IMG/VR virus record: IMGVR_UViG_3300030104_006170
Strand: one strand, 5' to 3'
Source of the DNA: a virus
Lineage: Duplodnaviria > Caudoviricetes
Length of the DNA: 64,000 nucleotides
In this document: positions 45,722 to 63,618 of the stretch, one piece after another
Layout of the letters: the number at the start of each line of letters is the position of its first letter
Numbering within the stretch: the first letter of the stretch is position 1
Notes under the pieces: generated by a model
The model's input: only the letters and a program-made list of their open reading frames with translations
What the model was told of the DNA's origin: nothing
Databases searched by the model: none
Translations under genes and position numbers: made by a program

Positions 45722-45725
45722 AATT

Positions 45726-46371: not shown

Positions 46372-46403
46372 TTTGACAAATTCGTTTTTTCCTGTTATAA
46401 TTA
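46372..46403 (+). promoter_or_regulatory. Strong promoter for the glycosylation locus
   Basis: TTTG (46372-46375), 20 nt, TATAATTA (46396-46403); also reads as a perfect TTGACA-17-TATAAT; ATG at 46408. Confidence 0.75.
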
Positions 46404-46407
46404 AAAC

Positions 46408-47646
46408 ATGGAAAAAAAGAAATATAAAATTTGTGTACTACCCTCTGATAGAACAGGGGTATCAAAGTTTAGGTCTGTCGACCCACATACATACTTACAA
46501 GACATGTACCCGGAAGAGTTTTGGGTAGATATAGTTTATGACCCACCTTACTATGATGATGATTTTTGGAAAGGTTATGATTTAATTCATTACCATAGAA
46601 GTATAGGCCCAGATTATGAAGCTTCTGCTGCATTAGCTAAAAGATTAACACAGTGGGGTATACCTCATGTGTGTGATATAGATGACTACTGGTTACCTAC
46701 TGTGGACCATCCGGCTCATATGATTGTAAAAAATAATAAAATAGATGAAAAAATAAGAACAAATCTTACTTTAGCGAGATATGTTACAACTACAACTACA
46801 GTATTTGCTGACGAAATCAAAAAACTAAATAAAAATGTTTTTATATATCCAAATGCTATAGACCACGAAGAAAAACAATATATCCCAAAACCAACAAAAA
46901 GTAATAAAGTTAGAGTTGGTTGGTTGGGTGGCTCCTCTCACATAAAAGATTTGGAAATTTTAAGTGGTGTTGCTGGTAGACTATATAATGATAGAAAAGA
47001 CAAGTTTCAAGTAGTTTTATGTGGTTATGATTTAAGAGGTACTATGACTGTTTTTGATGAAAAAACTGGACAACAGACTCAAAGACCTATCCAACCTATG
47101 GAGTCTGTGTGGTACAAATACGAACAAATTATGACTGATAATTATAGAATTTTAGGTGACGAATCTTACAGAGAAGAACTTTTATCTTTTAAGAAAAAAC
47201 AAATTACCGGTGATGAAAATTCTAACTATAGAAGAGTCTGGACTAAACCAATCACAACTTACGCTTCTAATTATAACAATTTTGATGTGAGTTTGGCACC
47301 ACTTAAAGAACATATTTTTAATAAGGTAAAATCACAACTAAAAGTTATAGAAGCTGGATTCCATAAAAAAGCTTTAGTATTACAGGATTATGGTCCATAC
47401 ACTATTGATTGTGTAAACGCTGTTAAGTTTGGTGGTGGTTTTGATGATAAGGGCAATGCTATGATGATACCAAAAAGTAAAAATCATAAATTGTGGTACC
47501 AGCACATTAAAAAACTAATAGACAACCCTTCTCTAGTGGAGGATTTGGGTGAAAGATTGTATGAGACTGTATACCCTAGGTATACATTAAAAACTGTAAC
47601 CACCCAAAGAGCAGAATGGTATAGAGAAATAATAAATAAATCTTAG
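46408..47646 (+). CDS. Glycosyltransferase, GT-B fold (GT4-like)
   Basis: CDIDDYW, PNAID, VGWLGGSSH..DL, DVSLAPL...FNKVKSQLKVIEAG. Confidence 0.85.
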   Translation: MEKKKYKICVLPSDRTGVSKFRSVDPHTYLQDMYPEEFWVDIVYDPPYYDDDFWKGYDLIHYHRSIGPDYEASAALAKRLTQWGIPHVCDIDDYWLPTVDHPAHMIVKNNKIDEKIRTNLTLARYVTTTTTVFADEIKKLNKNVFIYPNAIDHEEKQYIPKPTKSNKVRVGWLGGSSHIKDLEILSGVAGRLYNDRKDKFQVVLCGYDLRGTMTVFDEKTGQQTQRPIQPMESVWYKYEQIMTDNYRILGDESYREELLSFKKKQITGDENSNYRRVWTKPITTYASNYNNFDVSLAPLKEHIFNKVKSQLKVIEAGFHKKALVLQDYGPYTIDCVNAVKFGGGFDDKGNAMMIPKSKNHKLWYQHIKKLIDNPSLVEDLGERLYETVYPRYTLKTVTTQRAEWYREIINKS

Positions 47647-47647
47647 T

Positions 47648-47755
47648 ATGGGTATATTAACATTAATAGTAGGTTTTGGGGTTGGTCTTGTAAGTGGACT
47701 ATACCTTTCTAGTCAAATAGAAAAAAACATAAATAAAAGAATAAATAAAAAATAA
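47648..47755 (+). CDS. 35-aa single-pass membrane peptide
   Basis: Below the ORF-track cutoff; MGILTLIVGFGVGLVSGLYLSSQIEKNINKRINKK fills the gap between two genes. Confidence 0.55.
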   Translation: MGILTLIVGFGVGLVSGLYLSSQIEKNINKRINKK

Positions 47756-47760
47756 AAATT

Positions 47761-47991
47761 ATGTATTATCAAGCAATAGTAGCATTTGAAACCGGAGTTT
47801 TAGATAACGAGGGGAACGCAAAAGTAAAAAAATTTAAGTACGTAGTAGAGGCAGAGTCACTATACGAAGTTAATAAAAGGTTGGCAACTTATTTGTCTGA
47901 AGACACTAGAGATTCTGAAGTTGTGTCTATAGTTAAGGCTCCTTTTGAGGATATTTTACACCCGGAACTAACACCACAATATTACAAATAA
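47761..47991 (+). CDS. DUF4494-like small protein
   Basis: YQAIVAFET...KVKKFKYVVEAES..EV pattern resembling a Bacteroidota family. Confidence 0.55.
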   Translation: MYYQAIVAFETGVLDNEGNAKVKKFKYVVEAESLYEVNKRLATYLSEDTRDSEVVSIVKAPFEDILHPELTPQYYK

Positions 47992-47992
47992 A

Positions 47993-48601
47993 ATGAAAGA
48001 TAAATTAGGTAGTACATGGGACAGAATTAAAAGTGTTGTTAGTAACGAAGAAAATTCTATAAGTGATGAAAAAATGTTATCTCATTTAGGTGTAGATTCT
48101 AAAATGTTAAAGGATTTGGAAGACGAAACTGTTAAGTCTGCTATGGAGGGTGTGAAACCCGTAATCAAATATCAGAACAATTCTACAAACTTAGATTTAT
48201 CTTACAAATATATAGACGATAGTGGTATGGATTTAAGAGCTAATCTAAAAGAACCTATGACACTTAAATCTTTAGAAAGAGGATTAGTACCTACAGGAAT
48301 TCATTTTGAGTTACCCGAAAGTTTAGAAATCCAAGTTAGACCTAGAAGTGGTCTAGCTATTAAAAGTGGGATAACCGTACTAAACACACCAGGTACTGTA
48401 GATAGAGGTTATAACGGAGAAATAAAAATTATTTTAATGAACTTAAGTAAAGATGATTTTGTTATTAATCATGGTGATAGAATAGCACAGGCGGTAGTTT
48501 CTCCAGTAATTTCAGGTAGGTGGGCTAGACTAGTAAAAGTAAATAACTTAACAAAAACCCAAAGGGGTGATGGTGGATTTGGGTCAACAGGTATAGAATA
48601 A
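47993..48601 (+). CDS. dut: Trimeric dUTPase with N-terminal extension
   Basis: DSGMDL, QVRPRSGLA, PGTVDRGYNGEI, DRIAQAV, RGDGGFGSTG. Confidence 0.95.
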   Translation: MKDKLGSTWDRIKSVVSNEENSISDEKMLSHLGVDSKMLKDLEDETVKSAMEGVKPVIKYQNNSTNLDLSYKYIDDSGMDLRANLKEPMTLKSLERGLVPTGIHFELPESLEIQVRPRSGLAIKSGITVLNTPGTVDRGYNGEIKIILMNLSKDDFVINHGDRIAQAVVSPVISGRWARLVKVNNLTKTQRGDGGFGSTGIE

Positions 48602-48602
48602 A

Positions 48603-49700
48603 ATGAGTTTATCGATAGTATTTAGTACAAAAAAAATAAATGAAGATTTTGTTAAATTAATAAAGTCTACTTGTGGGGTACATAATGTTGAGGTTTTGCC
48701 TTACGAAAATCCTGGAAAATACTCACTTAATGAGGTCTATAACATGGGTTTAAAAAAAGCTACTAACGATAAAGTCGTATTTTGTCATGATGATATAAAA
48801 TTTGATACGAAAAATTGGGGTAGAAAAATGTTAAAGAACTTTTCTAAACATCCTGATTTTGGAATTATAGGCGTAGCAGGCACTAGATACCTTTCAACTA
48901 CCGGTAGATGGTGGGACGACTTTTCAAAAATGCATGGTGCTGTATACCACGAAAAAGATGGCAATAGGTGGTTAACAAGATATTCTAAAGATATAGGACT
49001 TAATTTAATGCCTGTAGTCTTAGTGGATGGGTTGTTTTTTGGGGTTTCTAAAAGTAAGTTAGTTAAACATTTTGACGAAAGTATAAAAGGATTTCACTTC
49101 TACGATGTAGAATTTTGTTTTTCTAATTTTTTAGAGAACGTTAAAATAGGTGTTTGTACTAATGTTAGAATAACTCATTTATCTATTGGTCAAACTAATG
49201 ATGAATGGGAAAAAAACAGAGAGGTTTTTGCTGAAAAATATAAAGATAAGTTACCTGTTAAAATGAATAGACCTTTTTACGATAATGAAAAATTTGATAT
49301 TTTAATTAGTACCGTATCTTTAAATGAAGAAATAATGGACCTATCAATAAACATTAAGAAACTAGGGCATAATTTATCTTTATTATGTGAACACTCTAGT
49401 TCACATAAGAAATTTTTAAATAGAAAAGGTATCGATATTCATCCTATTAATACACCCCCTGGTTTTAAAATGGGTGATGGGGAGTGGGCTTTGAGTGGGC
49501 CTAAAGGTCCTATCCAATCCGAAAAAGGTAAATTATATAAAATGAAAGAGATTAAATTTGATGTTATACATACCACGGACAATCAAATTATGGAGTACAT
49601 GAAAAATTTCTTTCCTAACACACCACAATTCAATAGTGATGATGATGAGGGGTTAAAGGGTGATTTAATAAAAAAATATAAAAAAGTTTTAGAATGGTAA
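48603..49700 (+). CDS. Glycosyltransferase, GT-A (family 2-like) with extra C-terminal domain
   Basis: YNMGLKKA...VFCHDDI, VDGLFF, GFHFYDVEFC, THLSIG. Confidence 0.8.
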   Translation: MSLSIVFSTKKINEDFVKLIKSTCGVHNVEVLPYENPGKYSLNEVYNMGLKKATNDKVVFCHDDIKFDTKNWGRKMLKNFSKHPDFGIIGVAGTRYLSTTGRWWDDFSKMHGAVYHEKDGNRWLTRYSKDIGLNLMPVVLVDGLFFGVSKSKLVKHFDESIKGFHFYDVEFCFSNFLENVKIGVCTNVRITHLSIGQTNDEWEKNREVFAEKYKDKLPVKMNRPFYDNEKFDILISTVSLNEEIMDLSINIKKLGHNLSLLCEHSSSHKKFLNRKGIDIHPINTPPGFKMGDGEWALSGPKGPIQSEKGKLYKMKEIKFDVIHTTDNQIMEYMKNFFPNTPQFNSDDDEGLKGDLIKKYKKVLEW

Positions 49701-50479
49701 AAATAGTTTCTGGTTGGAGTAATCGTGGTGGTTCTACTTTCGCATTTATAAATCTTACAAATGCATTAAATAAAGCTGGTTATGATACTACATTTTATGG
49801 TCCTCATGAATGGCATTTAGATAAATGTAAATCTGGTAGGATGAATGAAATAAACATGAGTAAAAATGATAATATGATTTTTCATTTTATACCTTTAAAT
49901 GGTAGACCTGATGTTAGAAAAGTTTTGTTATCTTGTCACGAAAAGAATATTTTTGAAGTTGGTGATATCCCTCAGTATTGGGATGAGGTTGTTTTTTTAA
50001 ATAAAAAACAAAGAGAATACCATAATAGATACAAAGGTAGATATAACATAATACCTAATCTTAAAGAAGTTTTAGAAAATAAACCTAAGTCAGCAACAGC
50101 AAAAGGTGTAGCAGGAATTATTGGTTCTATAGACGAAAATAAACAAACTCATATTTCAATACAAAAAGCTGTAAAAGACGGATTTAAGAAAATTATGTTA
50201 TTTGGTAATGTGACCGACCCTAACTATTATAATAATTTTGTAAAACCACTTATCGATGAAAAGGTGATAGAAAGAGGTTTTATTAGTGATAAACAAAAAA
50301 TATATGATGAAGTAGAAGCTGTGTACCTATCATCAAATAGTGAAGTAGCTTCATTAGTAAAAGATGAGTGTGAAACTACTGGCACAAAATTTTATGGTAG
50401 TAAAGCTACTGAACATGATGTAATAAACCTATCTAATGATGAAATCATAAAAGAATGGGTTAAAGTTTTAGATTTATGA
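49694..50479 (+). CDS. Compact glycosyltransferase, GT-B (GT4-like)
   Basis: GWSNRGGST, HEKN, IIGSIDENKQTH, SEVASLVKDECE. Confidence 0.7.
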   Translation: MVKIVSGWSNRGGSTFAFINLTNALNKAGYDTTFYGPHEWHLDKCKSGRMNEINMSKNDNMIFHFIPLNGRPDVRKVLLSCHEKNIFEVGDIPQYWDEVVFLNKKQREYHNRYKGRYNIIPNLKEVLENKPKSATAKGVAGIIGSIDENKQTHISIQKAVKDGFKKIMLFGNVTDPNYYNNFVKPLIDEKVIERGFISDKQKIYDEVEAVYLSSNSEVASLVKDECETTGTKFYGSKATEHDVINLSNDEIIKEWVKVLDL

Positions 50480-51162
50480 TTATAGGTAATGGACTTATCG
50501 CTAAATCATTTTTAAAAAAACACGATAAAGATGATATTGTTATTTTTGCGTCAGGAGTATCAAACTCAAAAGAAGATAATCCAAAAAATTTTAAAAGAGA
50601 AAAAGACTTATTACTAAAAACCCTAGAAACCCACCAAGAAATAAAATTTATATATTTTAGTACTGTCCTTATTGGTTATAAACATAATCCATACTATTCA
50701 CATAAAAAAGAAATGGAGAATTTAATAAGATTACACGCTAAAGATTATATCATATTTAGAGTTCCACAATTAATAGGTAGTTGTGGAAATAATAATAATC
50801 TTATAAACTATCTAGTGGGTAAGATAAAGTCAGGTGAGTCTTTTAAAGTTTATGGTAACCTTAAAAGAGCTGTGGTAGATATAGAAGATTTAGTTAATTT
50901 TGTTATGTATTGTGAAAACAAAATTAGTTGTAAAACTGTTTATGTGGGGGGTATAGAACCTATTTCTGTTGTTGACTTATCAAAAATAATTCAATATTTT
51001 TTTAATGTTAATGATGGTAATTTAAAGATGGAAATTAAAGATACTAATGAAGATAATAGATGGACTTCATTGACAAGTCCCATTTTTAAAGATTATTTAT
51101 CTGATTTTAGTATTGAGTCTAGGGGTTACACACAAAAAATAATAGAAAAATATATAAAATAA
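50476..51162 (+). CDS. NAD-dependent epimerase/dehydratase (short SDR-like)
   Basis: IIGNGLIAK, FASGVSNS, YFST, YYSHKKEME (YxxxK), FRVPQLIG. Confidence 0.75.
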   Translation: MIIGNGLIAKSFLKKHDKDDIVIFASGVSNSKEDNPKNFKREKDLLLKTLETHQEIKFIYFSTVLIGYKHNPYYSHKKEMENLIRLHAKDYIIFRVPQLIGSCGNNNNLINYLVGKIKSGESFKVYGNLKRAVVDIEDLVNFVMYCENKISCKTVYVGGIEPISVVDLSKIIQYFFNVNDGNLKMEIKDTNEDNRWTSLTSPIFKDYLSDFSIESRGYTQKIIEKYIK

Positions 51163-51168
51163 TAAATT

Positions 51169-51891
51169 ATGATAGTACTAACTGGTTTTTATAACGCTGA
51201 ACAATATATAGAGCGTTGTCTTGCTACTATTCAGTCTCAAGACTATAAAGATTTTACATGTTATATAACACATGACCATTCTACAGATAATTCAGTAAAT
51301 TTAGTAAAAGAATTTATTAAAGATGACAAAAGATTTGTTCTAGTTGAGGAGAGTGATAAAAAATTATATCAAGCTGGAAACTTTGATACTGTTATTCGTA
51401 ATAACCCTAATATAAAAGACAGTGATGTCCTAGTAGAGGTAGATGGTGATGACTATCTTCCTGATAGAGGGGTTTTGAGTAGAATTAATAAACTTTACGA
51501 GGATGAAAATGTCTGGATTGCTAACGGTAGTTTTAGATATTCTAGTGGACAACCAGGATTTTCCCAAAAACAAACAGGTTTTGATAACTTGAGACAGGTT
51601 AGGTTTACAGCTTCTCATATTAGAACTTGGCGTGCATTTTTATGGAGAAATATAAAAGAAGAAGACTTACGTGATGAAAATGGTGATTACTGGCAGTGGA
51701 GTGGTGATTTGTGTTTTATGTACCCAATGTTAGAAATGTCAGGAGAAGAACATTATAGATTTATGAATGAGGTAAATTACGTATATAACGAAACCAACCC
51801 AATAAATGAACACAAAATAGATATGACGATGGTTAATAACCACGCATCAAGAATAAGAAGTAAAAAACCATATAAAAAATTAAAAATATGA
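51169..51891 (+). CDS. Glycosyltransferase family 2
   Basis: YNAEQYIERCL, DHSTDNS, VEVDGDDYL. Confidence 0.9.
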   Translation: MIVLTGFYNAEQYIERCLATIQSQDYKDFTCYITHDHSTDNSVNLVKEFIKDDKRFVLVEESDKKLYQAGNFDTVIRNNPNIKDSDVLVEVDGDDYLPDRGVLSRINKLYEDENVWIANGSFRYSSGQPGFSQKQTGFDNLRQVRFTASHIRTWRAFLWRNIKEEDLRDENGDYWQWSGDLCFMYPMLEMSGEEHYRFMNEVNYVYNETNPINEHKIDMTMVNNHASRIRSKKPYKKLKI

Positions 51892-53189
51892 AAAAAATAG
51901 ATAGTATATTACCAACACTGTTAAATTATTTACAGGAAAATAAACCAAAATACTTATACAACCAATCCTTTGTGCCTGGTGAAAGTCAAGTACTATATTC
52001 AGGACCTTACTGGGATGAGGAAGAAATTATGGCAGCCATTAAAACTTTTATAGAAGGTAAGTGGGTAGTTGCTGGAGAAAATGTAAATAAATTTGAACGT
52101 GCTTTTGGTAGAGTTTTTGGTGCAAAATTTGTACAAATGGTAAATTCTGGTAGTTCAGCTAATTTAGTTCTAATATCGGCTCTAAAAAAATATTTTGGTT
52201 GGGAGGATGGTGACGAAGTCATAGTTTCTCCCGTTGGATTCCCAACAACTATATCTGTTTTGGTGCAGAATGGTTTAAAACCAGTTTTTATAGATATAGA
52301 GTATGAAACACTTAACTTTGACATTACAAAAATAGAAGAAAAGATAACCCCTAAAACTAAAGCTATTTTTGTTTCTCCTGTCCTGGGTAATGTTCCTGAC
52401 ATGGACTTTTTAACTGAATTATGTAAAAAACACGACATAAGATTAATTGGTGATAGTTGTGATAGTATTGGGTCTAAATGGGATGGTAAACACTTAAGTG
52501 AATATTACGAAGCGTGGACATCTTCTTTTTATCCTGCACACCACATATCAACAGGAGAAGGTGGAGCTGTATGTACTAACATAGCACCATTAAAAAGATT
52601 ATTTACTAGTTTTGCTTGGTGGGGTAGAGATTGTTATTGTGTTGGTTCTGCTAATTTATTATCGTGTGGTACTTGTGGTAAAAGATTCGATAAATGGTTA
52701 GATTCTTATGACGGAATAATTGACCACAAATATGTTTTTACTAATATGGGTTATAACCTAAAACCTATGGATTTACAAGGTTCTATTGGACTTATTCAGT
52801 TAAAGAAATTTGAGGAGATTGACAACAATAGAAAAAGAAGTAAAAATACCATAGAATCTATATTTTTAAAATATGTTGATGGGATTAAGGGTGTATCTAT
52901 GTTACCTAAAGCTGACACTTGTTGGTTTGGTACTCCTTTTATTTGTGATAATAAACAATTAAAAGATAAACTAGTTGCTTTTCTAGAAGAGAATAAAATA
53001 CAAACTAGAAATTACTTTGCTGGAAACATACTAATGCACCCAGGTTATAAACATTTAGATGATTTAAATAAGTACCCAAACGCTAATACAGTTTTAGACA
53101 AAGTATTTTTTGTGGGGGCAGCACCACATTACACAGAAGAAGTTTTTGATTATATAGAAAGTATATTTGTTAATAAATGGGAAAATTAA
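51888..53189 (+). CDS. rfbH: PMP/[2Fe-2S] NDP-4-keto-6-deoxyhexose 3-dehydrase (E1, DdhC/RfbH type)
   Basis: VNSGSSANL, SFYPAHHISTGEGG (His in place of the PLP Lys), GRDCYC...CGTC cluster motif, MGYNLK, TRNYFAGN. Confidence 0.88.
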   Translation: MKKIDSILPTLLNYLQENKPKYLYNQSFVPGESQVLYSGPYWDEEEIMAAIKTFIEGKWVVAGENVNKFERAFGRVFGAKFVQMVNSGSSANLVLISALKKYFGWEDGDEVIVSPVGFPTTISVLVQNGLKPVFIDIEYETLNFDITKIEEKITPKTKAIFVSPVLGNVPDMDFLTELCKKHDIRLIGDSCDSIGSKWDGKHLSEYYEAWTSSFYPAHHISTGEGGAVCTNIAPLKRLFTSFAWWGRDCYCVGSANLLSCGTCGKRFDKWLDSYDGIIDHKYVFTNMGYNLKPMDLQGSIGLIQLKKFEEIDNNRKRSKNTIESIFLKYVDGIKGVSMLPKADTCWFGTPFICDNKQLKDKLVAFLEENKIQTRNYFAGNILMHPGYKHLDDLNKYPNANTVLDKVFFVGAAPHYTEEVFDYIESIFVNKWEN

Positions 53190-56876: not shown

Positions 56877-57511
56877 AAATAGTTTATTATGGATATCGTG
56901 AATGGTCTTTTAAAATATTTAATAAACTTAAAGTAACAGACAAATATTTAGTCACACATAAAGATTATAGTATTATAGACACAATTAAACCAGACTTGGT
57001 TTTTTTTGTTGGGTGGAGCGATATTATACCCCAAGAAATAATAGAAAATAATTTATGTGTTTGTTTACACCCATCACCCCTACCCAAATATAGAGGGGGT
57101 AGTCCTATACAAAACCAATTATTAAAAAATGAAAAAAATAGTATGGTTAGTTTATTTGTTATGGATAAGGGTATTGACACTGGGGACATCCTATTTCAAT
57201 CACCCATTAGTCTACTTGGTGAGTTAGATGATATTTTTAATGAAATAGTAAGAGAAGGAATCAAAGGTATTGACTTTATAGTGGACAATTTCCAAGAAAT
57301 TCCTACTTTTAGAAAAAAGCAAGATTTAGATTCTGGTACTTTTTTTAATAGATTGAAACCGACTGATAGTGAGTTAAAGGTTGAGGATTTTATTGAGTAC
57401 GGTCCAGAGTATTTTCATAACAAAATTAGAGGGTTATCTTCACCTTACCCTAACGCTTATATAAAGTGTAAAAATGGTGAAAAACTATACATATTAAAAA
57501 CAAGATATTAA
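56873..57511 (+). CDS. N10-formyl-THF-dependent formyltransferase (Fmt-like, probably acting on a sugar)
   Basis: FVGWS.II, LHPSPLPKYRGGSPIQNQ, IDTGDI, YPNAY. Confidence 0.88.
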   Translation: MKIVYYGYREWSFKIFNKLKVTDKYLVTHKDYSIIDTIKPDLVFFVGWSDIIPQEIIENNLCVCLHPSPLPKYRGGSPIQNQLLKNEKNSMVSLFVMDKGIDTGDILFQSPISLLGELDDIFNEIVREGIKGIDFIVDNFQEIPTFRKKQDLDSGTFFNRLKPTDSELKVEDFIEYGPEYFHNKIRGLSSPYPNAYIKCKNGEKLYILKTRY

Positions 57512-58437
57512 TGAGAAATGAAAAAATATTCATAACAGGTGGAGCGGGGTTTTTAGGTAGGAATCTCGTTAAAAGATTATATAAAGATAATGAAATAACA
57601 GTATATTCTAGAGACGAAGCTAAACATTATTACATGAAAAAAGATTATCCTTCTGTTAAGTTTGTTGTTGGGGATATAAGAAATAGAGATTTATTAATTA
57701 GAAAATCTAAAGGTCATACTGTTGGTATTTTTGCTGCGTCTTTAAAACAAATTGAGGCGTGTAATGACAATTACGAAGAGGCCGCTAAAACAATTGTAGA
57801 CGGAGCCTTTAACTCAAGACTAGCAGCTGAACAAAATAATTTTAAGTCTGCTTGTTTTATTTCCACAGATAAGAGTAGAGCTGCCACAACATTATATGGT
57901 GCAATGAAATATGTCGCTGGTGAAGGTTTTGTGGTGGGTGAGTCTAATTGTAAGTTAACTACAGCTATATATGGAAATGTTACAAACTCTACTGGTTCTA
58001 TAATACCATTAATTTGGAATTTCATTAATAAAAATGCAATATTGTCATTATACGGCACTGAAATGACCAGATTTTTACTAGATGTAGATGATGCTGTAGA
58101 TTTAATTATGAAGTCACCATCTTACGCTGGGTGTAATTTAATTCCTATAGCAAAATCATTTAAGGTTAAAGACTTATTTGATATTTATTCGGAAGAATTT
58201 GGTTTACAATATAAAGTTACAGAACCTCGTACTGGTGAAAAAATACATGAAATAATGGCATCCAATGAAGAGGTTAGGAGAATGGAATTAATAAAAAATG
58301 ATGGAATCTATTTATTACACCCACAAAAAGACATACACCAAATATCGTTTAAACATGGAGAATATTCCTCCAGAGACCACTGTCTTACTAAAAATGAATT
58401 ATATAATTATTTAAAATCTAAAAATTTTTACAAATAA
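57511..58437 (+). CDS. UDP-GlcNAc 4,6-dehydratase (PseB/FnlA/CapD family)
   Basis: ITGGAGFLG, YSRDEAKH, GDIRN, AASLKQIEAC, ISTDK, YGNVTNSTGSIIP, GEKIHE. Confidence 0.88.
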   Translation: MRNEKIFITGGAGFLGRNLVKRLYKDNEITVYSRDEAKHYYMKKDYPSVKFVVGDIRNRDLLIRKSKGHTVGIFAASLKQIEACNDNYEEAAKTIVDGAFNSRLAAEQNNFKSACFISTDKSRAATTLYGAMKYVAGEGFVVGESNCKLTTAIYGNVTNSTGSIIPLIWNFINKNAILSLYGTEMTRFLLDVDDAVDLIMKSPSYAGCNLIPIAKSFKVKDLFDIYSEEFGLQYKVTEPRTGEKIHEIMASNEEVRRMELIKNDGIYLLHPQKDIHQISFKHGEYSSRDHCLTKNELYNYLKSKNFYK

Positions 58438-59147
58438 TGAAAGTTTTAGTTTTAGGTCATAAAGGTATGTTGGGTCATATGGTATCAAAATACCTACGTG
58501 ATAATAAGGTAGAGGTTGTCACTAGTGATGTGAGATGGCCAGAATCCCCTTTTAAACGAGATATTAAATTAGATTATGTTATTAACTGCATTGGTGCTAT
58601 ACCCCAAAGAACCAAAACTTTTGATATAAATTGGCACCTTCCGATATGGTTAGACTTTAATTCTCCTTGTAGAGTTATTCATCCTGGTACTGATTGTGAA
58701 ATGGATGACGATGATTATGGTAAATCTAAAAAAACCGCTGCCGACTTTCTAAACTCAATTGGGACCCAAACTAAAATACTAAAGACTTCTATTATTGGTC
58801 CAGAACTAAACAGTAACTCTAGTTTATTGGAGTGGTTTTTATCACAAAATGAAGATGTTTTTGGTTATACTAAAGCTATGTGGAATGGGAATACCACACT
58901 AGAGTGGGCAAAACAATGTCTTGCCCTTATGACTGTTTGGGACGATTATCCAACGGAAACAATATTAGAAGGTCAATGTGTGAGTAAGTATGTATTGTTG
59001 GAGACTATTAATGGTGTTTTTGGGAAAGGGTTAACTATAAATCCTAAGGAGGATGGTAAGGATAAATGTCTTACAGGTAGAATTAAAACTGACAATATCA
59101 AAGAACAATTAGAAGAACTAAAAAAATATTATTATGATAACAACTAA
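58437..59147 (+). CDS. RmlD-like NDP-4-keto-6-deoxy sugar reductase
   Basis: LGHKGMLG, INCIG, YGKSK, TSIIGPE, WNGNTTLEWAK, SKYVLL. Confidence 0.85.
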   Translation: MKVLVLGHKGMLGHMVSKYLRDNKVEVVTSDVRWPESPFKRDIKLDYVINCIGAIPQRTKTFDINWHLPIWLDFNSPCRVIHPGTDCEMDDDDYGKSKKTAADFLNSIGTQTKILKTSIIGPELNSNSSLLEWFLSQNEDVFGYTKAMWNGNTTLEWAKQCLALMTVWDDYPTETILEGQCVSKYVLLETINGVFGKGLTINPKEDGKDKCLTGRIKTDNIKEQLEELKKYYYDNN

Positions 59148-60045
59148 TTTAACGGGTAATTTAGGAAATCACATGTGGCAATATGCTGTTTGTAGAACTA
59201 TAGCAGAAGAACTAGGGTATGAATGGGGTATTAACCCAACGCCTAGTCACGATTATTTTAACGGTGCAAATCAAATGGATTTTATGGATGTAGATTTTGG
59301 TATGGTGGTAAGTGGTATTGTTAACGAATATCATGAGCCTTGGAAAACCTACCACCATGTAGACGCTGTAAACATAACAATGTTAAACTCTAGTTTATAT
59401 GAAATAGATGATAATACCATTTTAATAGGAGATAATGGAGCGAAAGGTGGTATATATCAATCTGAAGAATATATTAAAGATAGGAAGGATGATATTTTAA
59501 AGTGGTTTAAGATAAAAGACAATAAAAAGAAAGAATACAATACTAAATTAAATGAACTAGGAGTTACCTTAGATGAAAATACTTGTATTATTAATTTTAG
59601 AGGTGGTGAATATAGAGGTATACCTAATGTTTTATTACGTAGAGAGTATTGGCGAGATTGTGTGAATTACATGTTAACTTTAAATCCAAATATGAATTTT
59701 GTGGTAGTTACTGATGACCCACCAACAGCCTCACAATTTATGCCTTTTCAAATGAAATGTATTCACATAGACGTAGGTTTTGATTATTATTGTGTTAACC
59801 AAGCTAAATGGTTAATCATATCCAACTCAACGTTTGGGTGGTGGGCTGCATGGTTAAATGAAACTTGTAACAAAATTATAGCTCCCAAATATTGGGCAAG
59901 ACATAATGTTAGTGATGGTTATTGGGCAACAGGTGACGCTTACACCTCATGTTTTAATTATATGGATAGAGAAGGTTCTGTATCTGATTTTGAAACTTGT
60001 AAATCTGAAGCATTAAATTATTATAAATTAAAAAATATTATTTAA
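59134..60045 (+). CDS. Glycosyltransferase family 11 (alpha-1,2-fucosyltransferase-like), divergent donor motif
   Basis: GNLGNHMWQYA, YQSEEY, NFRGGEY, ISNSTFGWWAAWL. Confidence 0.82.
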   Translation: MITTNLTGNLGNHMWQYAVCRTIAEELGYEWGINPTPSHDYFNGANQMDFMDVDFGMVVSGIVNEYHEPWKTYHHVDAVNITMLNSSLYEIDDNTILIGDNGAKGGIYQSEEYIKDRKDDILKWFKIKDNKKKEYNTKLNELGVTLDENTCIINFRGGEYRGIPNVLLRREYWRDCVNYMLTLNPNMNFVVVTDDPPTASQFMPFQMKCIHIDVGFDYYCVNQAKWLIISNSTFGWWAAWLNETCNKIIAPKYWARHNVSDGYWATGDAYTSCFNYMDREGSVSDFETCKSEALNYYKLKNII

Positions 60046-60909
60046 ATGGGAAAAATATATGATTGTTTTAATTTCTTTAATGAGTTAGACATTTTAGAAC
60101 TAAGATTAAATATTCTCTACGAACATGTAGATTATTTTGTAATTGTAGAATCTACAGTTACTCACTCTGGCCAACCTAAACCTTTTTACCTAGAAGAAAA
60201 TAAGGAACGTTTTTCTAAGTTTTGGGACAAGATTATTAGTTTTAAAGTATCTGACACACCTGAAGATTTTGTTAACCTTACTAACACAGGATTTTTCGAC
60301 GCTGAATTAGATAAGGTACACTACTATATCCGTACACAAACTAATAGGTTTGATAGGCGTACACAAGTAGATTATGGTAGAGATTTTTTTCAAAAAGAAT
60401 CGGTTAGAAGAGCTCTAGTAAATTGTAATGAAGATGATATAATTATTATATCAGATGCTGACGAAATACCAAACCCAGAAATACTTAAAGATTTAAAGTC
60501 TCTTTCTTTAGATAATACAATATATTCCCTCTCCCAACCAATGTATTCTTATTACTTAAATATGTTAAGTGATTCGGACTGGCACGGTTCAAAAATGGGT
60601 CTATATAAAAACGTAAAAGAATTATCTTTTAACGAAATTAGGGGTGATTCAAACCTAACAACTAAATTGACTAATGGTGGATGGCATTTTAGTTTTATGG
60701 GTGGTGAAGAAATGGTGAAAACAAAAATAACATCTTATTCGGCTAGGGATTTAGTCAATGACCAAGTCCTATCAAGTATTAAGAGTAATATAGAAAATGA
60801 CCAAGATGTTTTTTTTAGAGGTAAATTAACAAAAGTAAAATTAGACGAAAGTTTTCCAGAATACGTATTAAATAATATACCATATTATAGTAAAATGATT
60901 AAAGAGTAA
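60046..60909 (+). CDS. Glycosyltransferase family 17 (beta-1,4-GlcNAc transferase, MGAT3-like)
   Basis: YDCFNFFNELDILELRL, VDYFVIVES..THSG.PKP, SDADEIP, GGWHFSF. Confidence 0.87.
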   Translation: MGKIYDCFNFFNELDILELRLNILYEHVDYFVIVESTVTHSGQPKPFYLEENKERFSKFWDKIISFKVSDTPEDFVNLTNTGFFDAELDKVHYYIRTQTNRFDRRTQVDYGRDFFQKESVRRALVNCNEDDIIIISDADEIPNPEILKDLKSLSLDNTIYSLSQPMYSYYLNMLSDSDWHGSKMGLYKNVKELSFNEIRGDSNLTTKLTNGGWHFSFMGGEEMVKTKITSYSARDLVNDQVLSSIKSNIENDQDVFFRGKLTKVKLDESFPEYVLNNIPYYSKMIKE

Positions 60910-60913
60910 CTCT

Positions 60914-61690
60914 ATGATTATTAGTAAAATAATGGGTGGGCTAGGTAATCAAATGTTTCAGTATGCTTACGCAAGAAATTTATCTAATTTAAATAACACT
61001 AACTTTTATCTAGATACCTCGTTTTATAATAATCAAATTGGTGTGACCCCTAGAGTGTTTAGTTTAAATTCTTTCCCTAAAGCTTCTATAAATATAGAAA
61101 TTCCACAAGTAGAAAGTATCCAAGTCATTAATGACAACTTTAAATATGATTCCACCAAATTAATTAAGGGTACCTGTCTATTACAAGGTTATTGGCAAAG
61201 CGAAAAATACTTTAATGACTCTAAAAATTTAGTACTAGAGGACTTTTCTCCTGATGAAACCAATAGAAAAAAGTTACTTAAAAAATACCCTAAAGTAGGG
61301 GGTAATACAATATCTTTACATATTAGAAGAACAGATTATTTAACATCTAATGGTTATCATCCAGTACAAACTATTGATTATTACAATAAAGCTATAGATA
61401 TTTTAGGTACATATGAAAATATTTTTATATTTTCAGATGATATAGACTGGTGTAAAAATAATTTAAATTTCAAAAATATGGTTTTTGTTGAGGGTAATAA
61501 AGATATAGAAGATTTATGGTTAATGTCTTTATGTAGAAATAACATTATAGTTAATTCTTCTTTTAGTTGGTGGGGTGCTTATTTAAATAAGAATGTCGAT
61601 AAAATAGTTATTGCTCCATCTAAGTGGTTTGGTGATGGTGTTACCTTAAATACTGAGGACATACTACCAAAAAAATGGATTAAACTTTAA
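60914..61690 (+). CDS. Glycosyltransferase family 11 (alpha-1,2-fucosyltransferase)
   Basis: GGLGNQMFQYA, GYWQSEKYF, HIRRTDY, FSDDIDWC, NSSFSWWGAYL. Confidence 0.92.
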   Translation: MIISKIMGGLGNQMFQYAYARNLSNLNNTNFYLDTSFYNNQIGVTPRVFSLNSFPKASINIEIPQVESIQVINDNFKYDSTKLIKGTCLLQGYWQSEKYFNDSKNLVLEDFSPDETNRKKLLKKYPKVGGNTISLHIRRTDYLTSNGYHPVQTIDYYNKAIDILGTYENIFIFSDDIDWCKNNLNFKNMVFVEGNKDIEDLWLMSLCRNNIIVNSSFSWWGAYLNKNVDKIVIAPSKWFGDGVTLNTEDILPKKWIKL

Positions 61691-61694
61691 TAAT

Positions 61695-62678
61695 ATGGGT
61701 ACGAATAAAACAGCTTTAATAACAGGGATAAATGGTCAAGATGGTTCATATCTTGCTGAACTACTTTTAAAAAAAGGTTACAATGTTTGGGGTATATTAA
61801 AAAGAAATTCTGTTTCTGAGAACCAGACAGCTAGAATACCGGAAAACATATACCAAAAACTTAATTTAGTTTATGGTGATTTATTAGACATCCCATCTTT
61901 AATTAATGTATTACAGAAATCTAAACCAGATGAGGTATATAATTTGGCGGCACAATCACATGTGAGAATAAGTTTTGACCAACCAATTTACACAACCCAG
62001 GTCACAGGATTAGGTACTCTAAATTTATTAGAAGCTATAAGATTAACCAACCCCAACATTAAAATATATCAGGCTAGTTCTTCTGAAATGTTTGGCAATA
62101 ATATAGATAGTGATGGATACCAAAGAGAAACCACACCAATGGAACCGGTATCACCATATGGGTGTGCAAAAGTTTTTTCTTACAATATTTGTAAAAACTA
62201 TAGAAACTCATATAATATGTTTATTTCAAATGGGATTCTATTTAACCATGAATCACCAAGGAGAGGTACAAACTTTGTAACTAATAAAGTCGTTAAAGAA
62301 GCTGTAAAAATAAAATTAGGGTTATCTAATGAACTTAAATTAGGTAATATGAACGCCAGTAGAGATTGGGGACACGCTAAAGATTATGTAAAAGCGATGT
62401 GGTTAATGTTACAAGAAGACTCCCCGGCTGACTACGTATGTTCTACAGGGATTTCACATACGGTTAAAGATTTGGTAGAATATGTATTTGGTTCATTAGA
62501 ATTGGATTGGGAAAAATATGTGAGACAGGATAAAAAGTATTTACGACCTGAAGAATTAGAACATTTAAAAGGCGACTGTTCAAAAATAAAATCAGAGTTG
62601 GGTTGGTCACCTAACTATAATTTCGAATCTATGTTAGATGAGATGATTGAATATTGGTTAGAGTATTATGAAAAATGA
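61695..62678 (+). CDS. gmd: GDP-mannose 4,6-dehydratase
   Basis: GINGQDGSYLAE, NLAAQSHV, YQASSSEMFG, SPYGCAK, NHESPRRG.NFVT. Confidence 0.96.
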   Translation: MGTNKTALITGINGQDGSYLAELLLKKGYNVWGILKRNSVSENQTARIPENIYQKLNLVYGDLLDIPSLINVLQKSKPDEVYNLAAQSHVRISFDQPIYTTQVTGLGTLNLLEAIRLTNPNIKIYQASSSEMFGNNIDSDGYQRETTPMEPVSPYGCAKVFSYNICKNYRNSYNMFISNGILFNHESPRRGTNFVTNKVVKEAVKIKLGLSNELKLGNMNASRDWGHAKDYVKAMWLMLQEDSPADYVCSTGISHTVKDLVEYVFGSLELDWEKYVRQDKKYLRPEELEHLKGDCSKIKSELGWSPNYNFESMLDEMIEYWLEYYEK

Positions 62679-63618
62679 TATGGAAATAATGGATGTTGGT
62701 GAGGTACATGTGAAAAGACCTAATTTATTAGTTACTGGTGGTCATGGTTTGGTCGGTAGCCAAATTAGTTCTGGTATAAAAATAGGTAGTATTGTAGATT
62801 TAAGAAATTCACAGATTTGTGATGCTTTTTTTAATGACACAAAACCCATAAACGTTGTTCATTGTGCAGCTAAAGTAGGTGGTTTAGGTGGTAATATGAA
62901 TCTAAAGGGTGAGTTTTTTTACGACAATATCATGATAAATACAAATGTGATAGAATCCTGTAGAAAATATGGGGTAAAAAAATTAGTTTGTTTTTTATCA
63001 ACTTGTGTTTTTCCAGATAATGTAGAATACCCATTAACAGAAAAAAAGATACATCTAGGTGAACCCCATAACTCTAATTATCCGTATGCATATGCTAAAA
63101 GAATGGCAGATATACAAATTAGAGCATATAGAGAGCAATACGATTTAAATTATGTATCTGTAATACCAACTAATATATATGGACCAAACGATAACTTTAA
63201 CTTAGAAAATGGACATGTAATACCTTCATTAATCCACAAATGTTATTTAGCCAAAAAAAATAATACCCCTTTTAAAATATGGGGAAGTGGTAAACCACTT
63301 AGAGAATTTATATACTCAGAAGATGTTGCTAAGCTAACTGAATGGGTTTTAGAGAATTATAATGAAGAAGAACCAATTATATTATCTACGTCTGAAGAAA
63401 TATCTATTAGAGATGTTGTTAAATTAATAATTAAACATATGGACTTTAAAGGTGATGTCATATGGGAAGATGAGAAACCTGATGGACAATTTAGGAAACC
63501 TAGTGATAATAGTAAATTAATGTCTTATTTACCAGATTTTAAATTCACTAGTTTAGATGAAGGATTAAAAAAAACAGTTGATTGGTTTGTATCAAACTAT
63601 AAATTATGTAGAAAATAA
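62668..63618 (+). CDS. fcl: GDP-L-fucose synthase (Fcl/WcaG-like epimerase-reductase)
   Basis: TGGHGLVG, AAKVGG, FLSTCVFP, YAYAKR, PTNIYGPNDNF..ENGHVIP, WGSGKPLREF. Confidence 0.94.
   Translation: MKNDMEIMDVGEVHVKRPNLLVTGGHGLVGSQISSGIKIGSIVDLRNSQICDAFFNDTKPINVVHCAAKVGGLGGNMNLKGEFFYDNIMINTNVIESCRKYGVKKLVCFLSTCVFPDNVEYPLTEKKIHLGEPHNSNYPYAYAKRMADIQIRAYREQYDLNYVSVIPTNIYGPNDNFNLENGHVIPSLIHKCYLAKKNNTPFKIWGSGKPLREFIYSEDVAKLTEWVLENYNEEEPIILSTSEEISIRDVVKLIIKHMDFKGDVIWEDEKPDGQFRKPSDNSKLMSYLPDFKFTSLDEGLKKTVDWFVSNYKLCRK

Follow-up and report, generated by a model that had tools for sequence, protein, structure and literature searches.

A 64,000-nucleotide stretch of viral DNA (here called the window) carries an island of sugar genes that, judged from the encoded proteins, would build a complex glycan, with the virus particle and the host envelope as the candidate acceptors. 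It is a phage island without membrane genes, in which a conserved core is kept while the middle is exchanged among relatives, in the fashion of a serotype locus.

An operon-like array of predicted soluble enzymes

ORF calling at positions 46408-63618 gave 22 back-to-back genes, all on the + strand, with junctions that overlap or measure less than 12 nt, except for the interval 47646-47993, which holds two small ORFs. The array runs for another ~3.5 kb beyond the window (genes for PhoH, an HAD-like protein, a 100-aa ORF, a GT1-like protein of 355 aa, and a GT-A-like protein of 265 aa) and ends near 67109 in window numbering, the continuation being read in G001/L002. An earlier sequence-only reading had described a 17-kb locus; the gene array is real, but the whole island covers ~20.7 kb, with ~26 genes and 12 glycosyltransferase (GT) domains, 10 of them inside the window.

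A consensus sigma-70-type promoter (46373..46401, + strand; TTGACA, 17 nt, extended TG, TATAAT) ends 6 nt 5' of the first gene. It matches the consensus at 12/12 positions, and the 64 kb contain no other perfect match, in line with the earlier claim of one strand and one strong promoter. Across four relatives, the -35 box is unchanged in all and the -10 box is retained in three; in relatives, the identical consensus also reappears directly 5' of further island genes. Neighboring virion genes are preceded by a candidate late motif, which was found at none of the gene starts of the island. The promoter is early-type (sigma-70-like), and the array is operon-like.

The Kyte-Doolittle maximum (19-residue window) stays below 1.2 for every island protein except the GT encoded at 48603, which has one borderline segment at 1.76. 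This supports the prediction, also made by the earlier reading, that the enzymes are soluble and lack a membrane span. We then searched for lipid-carrier machinery in G001 (~127 kb, from a genome of roughly 300 kb) and in four relatives, including one of 270 kb that is 88% complete. Bac_transf, the WecA/MraY family, Wzx, Wzy_C, ABC2_membrane, and PMT_2 were all without a match there, while the positive controls matched; these five yielded no priming transferase, flippase, polymerase, ABC permease, or GT-C, and none of the 671 ORFs of related loci (0/671) has more than three hydrophobic segments. The reported lack of a flippase, Wzy, and an undecaprenyl-phosphate transferase thus holds. The step from there to a soluble acceptor does not follow, because soluble GTs are likewise enough to extend host lipid A-core (as in LOS) or an undecaprenyl carrier primed by the host.

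Glycosyltransferases of the island

The first gene (46408..47646) encodes a strongly conserved 412-aa protein, assigned by fold as a GT-B, GT4-like GT of the retaining type. A Pfam search gave no match; the AF2 model (pLDDT 85.5) had MshA, GlgM, BshA, PimA, PglA, and SdgB as its best Foldseek matches (E of ~5e-12). More than 7600 protein clusters are homologous to it, the top 120 sharing 57-91% identity. Farther downstream lie a GT-A enzyme of the Glyco_tranf_2_5 family (48603..49700; Pfam, 1.5e-26) and a 261-aa protein (49694..50479) with a putative GT-B-type (GT1/GT4-like) domain, whose homologues are joined in a single fusion in the related loci L009, L010, L026, and L030. The 261-aa protein (45-94% identity in relatives) had no match in Pfam and PDB sequence searches; its language-model look-alikes in the Atlas are viral clusters, some with Glycos_transf_1, and are a lead only.

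A GT2 enzyme of 240 aa (51169..51891; Pfam Glycos_transf_2, 4e-15) is 60-93% identical across relatives. A second GT2 domain forms the C-terminal part of a fusion protein (53177..54583; Glycos_transf_2, 1.3e-12, residues 243-394) behind an RmlD-like 4-reductase (RmlD_sub_bind, 1.8e-20, residues 5-152). The two parts are separate genes in L012, L019, L026, and L030, and in the fusion the GT2 domain is the probable transferase partner of the reductase. The DUF5672 protein that comes next (54576..55241; Pfam, 2.3e-10), a putative GT-A-like transferase, is kept in nearly all relatives. It is followed by a DUF3431 protein (55231..55965; Pfam, 3.8e-7), also a putative GT, whose start was moved to an ATG that yields 244 aa, matching the 244-aa homologue in L007 (92% identity); a paralogue in L026 scores 5.7e-11. 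Every GT class of the sequence-only reading was recovered, but its count of ~9 domains had omitted this protein.

Toward the 3' end, a scaffold gene (59134..60045) encodes a GT of the fucosyltransferase superfamily with a weak GT11 signature (Pfam, 1.4e-5); its AF2 model (pLDDT 71) best matched FUT8 and NodZ in Foldseek, then FUT1 and POFUT1/2. The adjacent scaffold gene encodes a conserved GT17-family enzyme (60046..60909; Glyco_transf_17, 2.5e-26) with homologues in 18 viral loci (47-99% identity), and Synechococcus myophages also have GT17 and GT11 pairs. The GT11 enzyme of the alpha-1,2-fucosyltransferase family (60914..61690; Pfam, 6.6e-27) evolves fast, with just 57% identity in the nearest relative despite a backbone that is 90-99% identical. 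As for the GT-A-like 265-aa protein outside the window, its family profile matches GT2 structures at 1e-4.

Sugar-donor, tailoring, and other genes

By sequence, the island codes for enzymes that would lead to at least three activated sugars. GDP-L-fucose is the predicted product of two variable-cassette enzymes, a GDP-mannose 4,6-dehydratase (Gmd, 61695..62678; Pfam GDP_Man_Dehyd, 4.6e-120; NCBIfam gmd, 397 bits for a cutoff of 415) and a GDP-L-fucose synthase-like SDR (Fcl, 62668..63618; NCBIfam Fcl as best match, 238 bits for a cutoff of 500). Gmd is 72-74% identical to Aureispira/Saprospiraceae genes, and Fcl is 64-69% identical to the gmd-adjacent gene of the same bacteria.

A 3,6-dideoxyhexose would be formed by an E1-type, PMP-dependent NDP-4-keto-6-deoxyhexose 3-dehydrase (51888..53189) together with the RmlD-like and short SDR reductases, one of the latter being a 228-aa candidate nucleotide-sugar reductase/epimerase (50476..51162; Pfam Epimerase, 5.4e-6, partial). 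The dehydrase matches Yersinia E1 (PDB 3bcx, 4.7e-80) and ColD (PDB, 5e-45) and in the alignment keeps His rather than Lys in the active site, along with the Cys-rich Fe-S motif; the RfbH model gave 365 bits, under its cutoff of 423. An E3-type reductase and a nucleotidyltransferase or 4,6-dehydratase for the E1 substrate were not seen in the island, and we propose that the host supplies the 4-keto-6-deoxy precursor for E1 and the E3-type reductase.

The third predicted sugar, of the 6-deoxy-HexNAc type, would come from a PseB/FnlA-like UDP-HexNAc 4,6-dehydratase (57511..58437; Pfam Polysacc_synt_2, 2.7e-39; NCBIfam PseB, 164 bits, and FnlA, 109 bits, each under cutoff) and a 236-aa short SDR (58437..59147; Pfam Epimerase, 6.4e-4, N-terminal only). 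This candidate partner reductase is found together with the PseB-like gene in L016, L017, L019, and L028. Two further cassette enzymes, a NodB-type polysaccharide deacetylase (55965..56876; Pfam Polysacc_deac_1, 1e-6), limited to the window and L007/L014 (73% identity), and a formyltransferase (56873..57511; Pfam Formyl_trans_N, 2.8e-15; PDB matches to Fmt-like 1zgh at 1e-24 and to ArnA and sugar N-formyltransferases at ~1e-7), could swap N-acetyl for N-formyl groups. All the donor-pathway and tailoring classes named earlier are backed by Pfam, NCBIfam, PDB, and fold results.

The locus also contains a dUTPase that had gone unlisted (47993..48601; Pfam, 7.5e-26; NCBIfam dUTP diphosphatase, 168 bits, over cutoff). 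It has an N-terminal extension of ~65 aa and belongs to the conserved scaffold, with a role in nucleotide metabolism rather than glycan chemistry. Upstream of it are a small hydrophobic ORF of 35 codons, uncertain as a gene (47648..47755), and a 76-aa protein (47761..47991) whose position is kept in close relatives, with ORFs of 76-90 aa at this site in L007, L008, and L011. The 5' part of a PhoH-like ATPase gene (63629..64000; Pfam PhoH) closes the window as the island goes on.

A fixed scaffold with exchanged cassettes

At least 15 related viral contigs from various metagenomes match the window in flanks and gene order. Their shared scaffold consists, in its 5' part, of the 412-aa GT-B, the dUTPase, GT2_5 with the 261-aa GT-B, GT2, the DegT-family enzyme, RmlD with GT2, and DUF5672, and in its 3' part of the GT11-like and GT17 enzymes, PhoH, HAD, and the GT1-like and GT-A-like proteins. 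Relatives exchange Galf, heptose-type, C-methyl, and amino-sugar cassettes, with the families Glf, RmlC, FkbM, C-methyltransferase, and SIS/kinase/nucleotidyltransferase/transketolase. Even in the nearest relative, with a backbone 92-99% identical, Gmd/Fcl are replaced. Conservation extends much further for the first GT and the scaffold than for the cassettes, and this exchange around a fixed core resembles bacterial serotype loci.

The island belongs to an abundant, uncultured lineage of marine jumbo myophages with T4-type virion genes, and near-identical DNA is present in metagenomes from 13 studies. The 64-74% identity of Gmd and Fcl to bacterial genes might suggest that a piece of a host O-antigen or capsule locus was wrongly joined to phage sequence, but such an artefact has a negligible probability. 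G+C content (0.28-0.32) and strand skew match the remainder of the window, a second, independent IMG/VR record is 99% identical, the promoter is conserved and phage-type, and the identical flanks and order in the contigs from different metagenomes rule out a chimeric assembly. The locus is that of a phage, as first described.

Candidate acceptors of the glycan

We tentatively favor the phage's own virion proteins as the acceptor, on the strength of the hypervariable or Ser/Thr-enriched insertions in the gp23-like capsid protein and the tail sheath. A conserved core oligosaccharide would be assembled in the cytoplasm and capped by strain-specific sugars, and these insertions would be the candidate sites. 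The capsid gene lies 7.7 kb past the island; residues 101-300 of its product are 68% identical to those of G006, versus 94-97% at residues 1-100 and 301-614, and the values fall to 19-36% in more distant relatives, versus 74-91% at residues 1-100 and 401-614. The sheath gene (27892..31320, - strand) encodes a large N-terminal/internal insertion with 28-37% Ser plus Thr at residues ~100-400, ahead of the Pfam sheath domains (residues 866-1150). A mucin-like or C-terminal Ser/Thr tail is absent, the highest content per 40-aa window being 47%, in the sheath. Both insertions, together with the wide conservation of the first GT and of the scaffold, are circumstantial support for a phage-encoded acceptor. 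Against it stand the absence of such a tail, the early-type promoter without the late motif of the neighboring virion genes, and GT families and rare sugars typical of O-antigen/LOS pathways, which are likewise based on soluble GTs.

Since soluble GTs suffice there too, remodeling of the host envelope is nearly as likely. The phage GTs would work at the inner membrane face on a lipid acceptor supplied by the host (lipid A-core as in LOS, an undecaprenyl-PP-sugar primed by the host, or the lipid-linked glycan of general O-glycosylation in Bacteroidota), with export by host MsbA/Lpt, Wzx, ligase, or oligosaccharyltransferase, and would alter the cell surface early in infection, for example for superinfection block or grazer evasion. 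The missing membrane genes are no counterargument, given that soluble or peripheral GTs are all that LOS and O-unit assembly takes, and the promoter type fits. The GT2, GT4, and GT11 families and the 3,6-dideoxyhexose, N-formyl, 6-deoxy-HexNAc, Galf, and heptose sugars are O-antigen/LOS hallmarks, the cassettes turn over as in serotype loci, the adjacent Gmd-Fcl pair is closest to Saprospiraceae genes, and cyanophage clusters have been published as host cell wall modification (PMC9602691). However, phages that are 40-60% diverged and presumably infect different hosts keep the 12-GT scaffold, which points to a single conserved acceptor. Host outer glycans lack such conservation, with lipid A-core and Und-PP-GlcNAc as potential exceptions. 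A core transferase of the GT9 or GT30 type was not recognized, the cost to a lytic phage would be very high, and the giant-virus analogues that share this gene logic decorate virions.

Another cytoplasmic product, such as a free or secreted oligo- or polysaccharide, a glycosylated small molecule, or nonvirion host or phage proteins, seems unlikely. It would suit the small-molecule GTs among the nearest folds of the GT4-type enzyme (MshA, BshA, GlgM, SenB), the company of early metabolic genes (dUTPase, PhoH, HAD-like), and an acceptor that is so far only a candidate, but no exporter turned up in the loci and genomes searched, and twelve GTs, at least three rare-sugar pathways, and serotype-like exchange point to an exposed, recognized glycan rather than a metabolite. 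Far less probable still is DNA hypermodification, in which the GTs would add sugars to hydroxymethylated pyrimidines, following the precedent of T4 and of the 5hmC-glycan clusters described by Pyle et al. The dUTPase and the HAD/NT5C-like gene in the island could serve it, the relative G004 has a MilA-like CMP 5-hydroxymethylase elsewhere in its genome, and phage GTs that act on DNA, which descend from LPS-type enzymes, can attach glycans as large as trisaccharides, heptose among their sugars (10.1101/2023.12.21.572611). Yet twelve GTs with fucose and dideoxy/N-formyl pathways go far beyond any known DNA glycan. The visible 127 kb contain no thymidylate synthase-family hydroxymethylase, G001 and the four relatives contain no C5 methyltransferase, and the ThyA-family protein of G002 resembles ordinary full-length ThyA (310 bits); a Tet_JBP search was without matches, its positive control being likewise silent. 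This alternative of the earlier reading thus gained no support from the search for base-modifying enzymes in the visible DNA.

Comparison with known systems

Comparable islands are already known from cyanophages. Cyanomyoviruses have similar gene sets, for example the 13 genes of S-SCSM1 (PMC9602691), and a published lineage resembling the present one has four core GT orthogroups (PMC12619734), so the claim that the locus goes beyond phage examples was overstated. In mycobacteriophages, the virion GT genes lie in the structural operon; with its early-type promoter and no late motif, the present island is not wired in that way. Giant viruses offer precedents for the proposed decoration of virions: their own genomes encode Gmd/GMER and multidomain soluble GTs, and their glycans combine a conserved core with sugars that differ by clade (PMC7826918, PMC10117803, PMC9614988). 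In chloroviruses and mimiviruses, virus-encoded soluble enzymes glycosylate the particles, and we propose that the phage enzymes would act likewise.

Results

Gene content and extent of the island

Gene classes were assigned by family, structure, and fold searches. The + strand region 46408-63618 holds 22 genes, whose ORF calls overlap or lie a few bases apart; the sole larger gap in the array (47646-47993) contains two small ORFs. Its G+C content and strand skew are those of the remaining window. The first gene (46408) encodes a GT4-like GT-B glycosyltransferase (GT) for which no Pfam family scored over threshold. Its AF2 model (pLDDT 85.5) adopts a two-Rossmann GT-B fold nearest to GT4 enzymes, and Foldseek retrieved MshA, BshA, PimA, and PglA at E values of 1e-10 to 5e-12. 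Downstream and on the same strand, we found a dUTPase (47993), a Glyco_tranf_2_5 GT (48603), and a 261-aa protein (49694) that is GT-B-like by a language-model lead only, with no match in cultured phages or among PDB sequences. These are followed by a short SDR (50476), a GT2 (51169), an E1-type 3-dehydrase (51888), an RmlD-like reductase fused to a GT2 (53177), a DUF5672 protein (54576), a DUF3431 putative GT (55231), a NodB-type deacetylase (55965), a formyltransferase (56873), a PseB/FnlA-like dehydratase (57511), and another short SDR (58437). A fucosyltransferase-superfamily GT (59134), a GT17 (60046), a GT11 (60914), Gmd (61695), and an Fcl-like SDR (62668) complete the region. The predicted fold of the 59134 product was closest to FUT8 and NodZ, with POFUT1/2 ranked lower and modest TM scores (0.45 to 0.5), so that the fold comparison did not discriminate when we considered the protein as a protein O-fucosyltransferase look-alike.

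The gene classes listed in the sequence-only reading were thus right, but that list omitted the dUTPase and the DUF3431 protein (a tenth putative GT), and it ended the locus too early, at 63618. An independent IMG/VR record (G001), 99% identical along the whole stretch, runs beyond the window end, and there the array goes on 3' of Fcl with PhoH, a HAD/NT5C-like protein, a 100-aa ORF, a GT1-like protein of 355 aa, and a 265-aa protein whose family profile matches GT2 structures at ∼1e-4. The full island therefore measures ∼20.7 kb and carries 12 GT domains. Hydropathy revealed no membrane-spanning segment in any island protein.

An early-type promoter between late genes

Only one perfect TTGACA-17-TATAAT sequence occurs in the 64-kb window, at 46373-46401, 6 nt 5' of the first island gene. 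When we compared the island promoter in four relatives, the -35 box was invariant, the -10 box was kept in three, and the flanking spacer varied. In relatives, further island genes are immediately preceded by the same consensus; besides the copy in the window, perfect E. coli-type sigma-70 sequences were located in related loci at 5785 (L009), 8077 (L010), 13776 (L011), and 1423 and 20151 (both L019). The occurrence of this consensus was unexpected, since signs of gene transfer suggest a Bacteroidota host and the promoters of that group normally differ from it.

A candidate late motif, TATTTAT (coding strand), precedes five small upstream genes (43686) and the post-island genes but no gene start within the island; the reverse-sense motif served as a positional marker only. 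The exact T4 late box, TATAAATA, was not enriched in the window. Because TATTTAT flanks the island and is absent at its gene starts, the island is probably transcribed as a unit of the early type, flanked by late genes. The five small genes just 5' of it (43686-46358, +) encode proteins of 277, 151, 113, 133, and 210 aa, are kept only in the closest relatives, and gave no family match except a borderline WYL. At the other end, a conserved 234-aa protein (G001 locus L002, 3864-4568) directly follows the last GT, ahead of the first late-motif gene. It appeared sigma-like by eye, but searches of Pfam, PHROGs, and PDB sequences for a sigma factor were empty.

Donor-sugar enzymes and likely chemistry

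The E1-like protein (51888) aligns end to end with Yersinia E1 (4.7e-80). An active-site histidine is what tells dehydrases from aminotransferases, and alignment to the 3bcx wild type and the 3bb8 H220K mutant placed a histidine where aminotransferases have lysine. Furthermore, a CxC...C..C block aligns with the cysteine motif of the [2Fe-2S] cluster in Yersinia E1. The protein scored 365 bits against the RfbH equivalog, below the cut-off of 423. We saw no E3 reductase, cytidylyltransferase, or 4,6-dehydratase for the E1 substrate in the island. Gmd reached 397 bits (cut-off, 415) and the Fcl-like protein 238 bits (cut-off, 500), Fcl being its best-matching family; the two genes adjoin each other, as in Saprospiraceae genomes.

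From these assignments, we infer the likely chemistry of three sugar pathways. Gmd and Fcl would make GDP-fucose, to be consumed by the GT11-type enzymes; in relatives devoid of Gmd/Fcl, GDP-fucose would have to come from the host. E1 may perform the 3-deoxygenation of a host NDP-4-keto-6-deoxyhexose, with a host reductase replacing E3, after which the RmlD-like domain would reduce the product and the GT2 fused to it would carry out the transfer. Since relatives insert RmlC at that point, dTDP-linked L-series sugars are suggested for the E1/RmlD step. Finally, the PseB/FnlA-like enzyme could dehydrate a UDP-HexNAc for reduction by the adjoining SDR, and the deacetylase and formyltransferase could convert N-acetyl into N-formyl groups. 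The partnerless E1-type dehydrase, the reductase-GT fusion, and the DUF5672 and DUF3431 transferases offer new material for glycoenzymology.

A fixed scaffold with exchangeable cassettes

The island belongs to a phage genome: the window also encodes ribonucleotide reductase, DnaB, PolB, a helicase, a gp32-like SSB, a 5'-3' exonuclease, gp25, a T4-type baseplate protein, a gp19-like tube protein, and a 1162-aa sheath. The replication genes are accompanied by one for an FKBP-type peptidyl-prolyl isomerase (6889-7323, -; Pfam 6e-21), and a 2108-aa protein with an M23 peptidase domain at its end (10335-16661, -) is likely to be either a cell-wall hydrolase associated with the virion or a tape-measure-like protein.

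Two viral-contig searches yielded 23 further loci that share this arrangement and come from at least 15 distinct contigs. A chimeric assembly, which had been raised against the locus, is excluded by this recurrence and by the 99% identical independent record. The layout is that of a fixed scaffold of 9 to 10 genes with exchangeable sugar cassettes. The fixed part starts with the first GT, dUTPase, and the GT2_5 and 261-aa GT-B-like proteins (a single fused protein in several relatives), continues with GT2, a DegT-family enzyme, RmlD and GT2 (fused or split), and DUF5672, and ends with the GT11-like, GT17, PhoH, HAD, GT1-like, and GT-A-like genes. Cassettes between scaffold genes encode UDP-galactopyranose mutase, RmlC, FkbM and other methyltransferases, an SDR-sugar C-methyltransferase fusion, a B12-radical-SAM enzyme, or a heptose-type set (SIS isomerase, kinase/nucleotidyltransferase, and split transketolase). 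At the E1 position, more distant relatives have a DegT enzyme that is 29 to 31% identical. In the nearest relative, the flanks are 92 to 99% identical, whereas the GT11 at 60914 is only 57% and the deacetylase and formyltransferase 73 to 76% identical, and a different four-gene set takes the place of Gmd/Fcl. Such flank conservation with cassette turnover is, to judge from these sequences, the population structure of a serotype locus.

Abundance, relatives, and candidate host

The lineage is abundant. Homologues of the first GT make up more than 7600 protein clusters; the top 120 are 57 to 91% identical, have the same length, and lie on contigs of up to 294 kb. Near-identical DNA was found in marine, sponge, seawater, and riverine metagenomes from 13 studies. 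A nucleotide search of the cultured-phage collection gave nothing near, with only Gmd-level similarity to cyanophages and megaphages. Because the DNA polymerase is at best 24% identical to that of any cultured phage, no cultured relative informs function. Phapecoctavirus phages of E. coli carry four adjoining annotated glycosyltransferases (45046-48190 in Escherichia phage Mt1B1_P17), one of which is a 25% identical homologue of the first island GT; we found no literature on the function of this cluster.

Moraphages are aquatic jumbo phages of Bacteroidota (Perez-Hernandez et al. 2025, PMC12619734), with genomes of up to 307 kb, a predicted Bacteroidota host, and four GT orthogroups in their core. 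Setting the published core-gene list alone against the genes of this genome, we found that it fits: dUTPase, PhoH, gp19 tube, gp25, sheath, gp23-type capsid, PolB, gp32-like SSB, a 5'-3' exonuclease-type Pol I VOG, and peptidase (PMC12619734). That study lists GTs and possible roles, without the island, donor pathways, or cassette structure. The closest sequences to the adjacent Gmd/Fcl pair come from Aureispira and other Saprospiraceae (72 to 74% and 64 to 69%), which fits the predicted Bacteroidota host of moraphages.

Absence of lipid-carrier machinery

The sequence-only reading had seen no flippase, Wzy, or undecaprenyl-phosphate transferase, and this held when we extended the search for membrane glycan-assembly genes to G001 and to four relatives, one of 270 kb and 88% complete. 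Bac_transf (PF02397), WecA/MraY (PF00953), the Wzx-type flippase PF13440, Wzy_C (PF04932), ABC2_membrane (PF01061), and PMT_2 were all absent from these five records, with positive controls. Moreover, none of 671 ORFs from the 127 kb of this phage and 24 related loci had more than three hydrophobic segments.

Candidate virion acceptors

The gp23-type capsid gene lies 7.7 kb past the island on the opposite strand (G001, 30.5 to 32.3 kb; ∼74.8 to 76.7 kb in window numbering). Capsid residues 101 to 300 are 68% identical to those of the related phage G006, versus 94 to 97% for residues 1 to 100 and 301 to 614; in more distant relatives, identity is 19 to 36% in 101 to 300 versus 74 to 91% in residues 1 to 100 and 401 to 614. 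Across seven capsids of 598 to 635 aa (L117 to L120 and L125 to L127), we observed an internal hypervariable insertion of ∼200 to 300 aa, which diverges 5 to 10 times faster than do the regions forming the shell and differs by large indels from one relative to another. The conserved C terminus is not S/T-rich (11% S+T), and an enrichment of 18 to 20% is internal. The tail sheath (27892-31320, -; 1142 to 1162 aa) is nearly twice as long as T4 gp18. Sheath domains are recognizable only at residues 866 to 1150; the N-terminal ∼800 aa are enriched in Ser/Thr and Cys, the insert containing 28 to 37% Ser/Thr. No mucin-like tract above 47% S/T per 40 aa was present among 102 ORFs over 127 kb. By their sequence features, the capsid and sheath inserts are candidate acceptors.

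Discussion

What the glycan is attached to

Virion proteins are the acceptor we favor, tentatively and at somewhat less than an even chance. The scaffold, and the first GT above all, is conserved far beyond the cassettes, which argues for a phage-encoded acceptor, as do the hypervariability of the virion surface at capsid residues 101 to 300 and the Ser/Thr content of the sheath insert. By analogy, the gene logic, which is that of the virion-decorating chlorovirus and mimivirus systems, would also favor it (PMC7826918, PMC10117803, PMC9614988). The early-type promoter, the lack of an S/T-rich tail, and the O-antigen-like enzymes and sugars speak against it. This last resemblance suits a host-envelope acceptor, either an LOS-type lipid A-core or a host-primed undecaprenyl carrier, which we regard as almost equally probable. 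The missing carrier genes had earlier been taken to indicate a soluble acceptor. They do not decide the matter, because extension of lipid A-core or of an undecaprenyl carrier needs only soluble GTs and host exporters; GTs that are all soluble or peripheral, as here, are compatible with LOS-type synthesis and not specific for it. Some other cytoplasmic product is unlikely to be the target.

DNA glycosylation, proposed earlier as an alternative, seems very improbable, since its prerequisite is missing: neither the island nor the visible 127 kb encodes a dNMP hydroxymethylase, nor the C5-methyltransferase that the alternative route with TET/5mYOX would need. A Tet_JBP search was empty, its positive control being silent as well. 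In its support, the genome of the distant relative G004 has, away from the island, a gene for a MilA-like CMP hydroxymethylase. This 329-aa thymidylate-synthase-family protein (L033, 1474-2463; ∼149.5 kb) is closest to MilA CMP 5-hydroxymethylase (5jnh, 9e-43), so that synthesis of hydroxymethyl-cytosine is possible in some relatives. No MilA-like homologue occurs in the 127 kb visible for this phage.

Returning to virion proteins as the acceptor, it is conceivable, though short of probable, that in this globally abundant lineage of marine jumbo phages a cytoplasmic factory free of lipid carriers coats the particle, on the capsid insertion, the sheath insert, or fibers, with a heteroglycan of conserved core and serotype-like outer sugars exchanged horizontally. 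Bacterial viruses would then have their own equivalent of the glycosylation seen in chloroviruses and mimiviruses, and marine phage particles would bear "glycotypes" under diversifying selection; variable sugar coats would influence how particles adsorb, are grazed, aggregate, and are sorted by lectins, as well as carbon export. If the glycan is instead on the host, a lytic phage would repaint the host surface inside one infection cycle. Either outcome would settle the question of phage "LPS genes," open since P-SSM2, and the scaffold with its exchangeable cassettes makes a clear, testable system.

Comparison with known systems

To our knowledge, mycobacteriophages provide the only experimentally shown phage virion glycosylation. 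O-glycosylation of Che8, Corndog, and Myrna virions is described by Freeman et al. 2023, as cited in PMC12619734. There as here, phage-encoded soluble GTs are proposed to decorate capsid and tail proteins. In mycobacteriophages, however, one to four GTs belong to the late operon of structural genes and modify S/T-rich tails at the C terminus, whereas this island has 12 GT domains and donor pathways behind an early-type, sigma-70-type promoter, with the capsid gene 7.7 kb away on the opposite strand, and we saw no C-terminal S/T tail.

O-antigen and LOS loci (3,6-dideoxyhexose rfb of Yersinia/Salmonella; LOS of Campylobacter/Neisseria) share with the island an E1-type dehydrase, GT2, GT4, and GT11 enzymes, rare-sugar cassettes, and a hypervariable center between conserved flanks; LOS loci also dispense with Wzx, Wzy, and a priming enzyme. 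Unlike them, the island resides in a phage genome with dUTPase and PhoH interleaved, and unlike O-antigen loci, it lacks CDP-glucose synthase and 4,6-dehydratase, E3, a priming transferase, a flippase, and a ligase. The priming enzyme, flippase, polymerase, and permease of Wzx/Wzy- or ABC-transporter-dependent loci were likewise not found.

P-SSM2 reportedly carried the first known phage-encoded glycan cluster. We know of no demonstration of the acceptor for any cyanomyovirus set, nor of a determined target for any phage glycan cluster outside mycobacteriophages. The 13-gene "LPS/cell-wall" set of cyanophage S-SCSM1 was interpreted as host-surface modification (PMC9602691). Like this phage, cyanomyoviruses are marine T4-type myophages in which a single region groups Gmd and Fcl with fucosyltransferases and a number of soluble GTs; their GT17 homologues are 29 to 38% identical (protein) and their Gmd ∼70% (DNA), and S-B05, S-B43, and RN05-S have GT17+GT11 pairs as here. 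They differ in lineage and probably in host, and the larger size (12 GT domains), the lineage-wide fixed scaffold, and the E1-type dideoxy pathway are this island's own.

The capsid N-glycan machinery of chlorovirus PBCV-1 comprises A064R, A111/114R, A075L, and viral GMD/GMER (PMC7826918, PMC11571054, PMC5408694). In both systems the virus encodes Gmd and enzymes of the Fcl type along with numerous soluble GTs of the cytoplasm, multidomain fusions included; both combine a conserved core with outer sugars that vary by strain (predicted here), both have methyltransferases (here in relatives), and neither depends on a virus-encoded lipid-carrier pathway. In the chlorovirus, a eukaryotic virus, the genes are scattered and the major capsid protein is the proven carrier of the glycan, whereas here there is one operon, with the capsid and sheath inserts as candidate acceptors. 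The fibril-glycan clusters of Megavirinae are clade-specific sets of 6, 9, or 12 genes (PMC10117803, PMC9614988). They too group genes for rare bacterial-type sugars (6-deoxy-HexNAc via FnlA-like enzymes, amino sugars) with GTs, and their content depends on the clade, like the cassettes here; they are smaller and target the fibril layer of amoeba viruses, in contrast to one early-type operon in a tailed phage. As in these large DNA viruses, we found Gmd, Fcl, E1, and PseB-like enzymes with 12 GT domains, RmlD-GT2 and GT2_5-GT-B fusions, and, at the gene level only, a conserved core with clade-specific additions over at least 15 contigs. Large glycan clusters were already known in marine myophages (P-SSM2; S-SCSM1, PMC9602691); new here are the lack of carrier machinery in a near-complete relative, the E1-type pathway, the 12 GT domains, the early-type promoter, and a documented lineage-wide scaffold with serotype-like cassettes.
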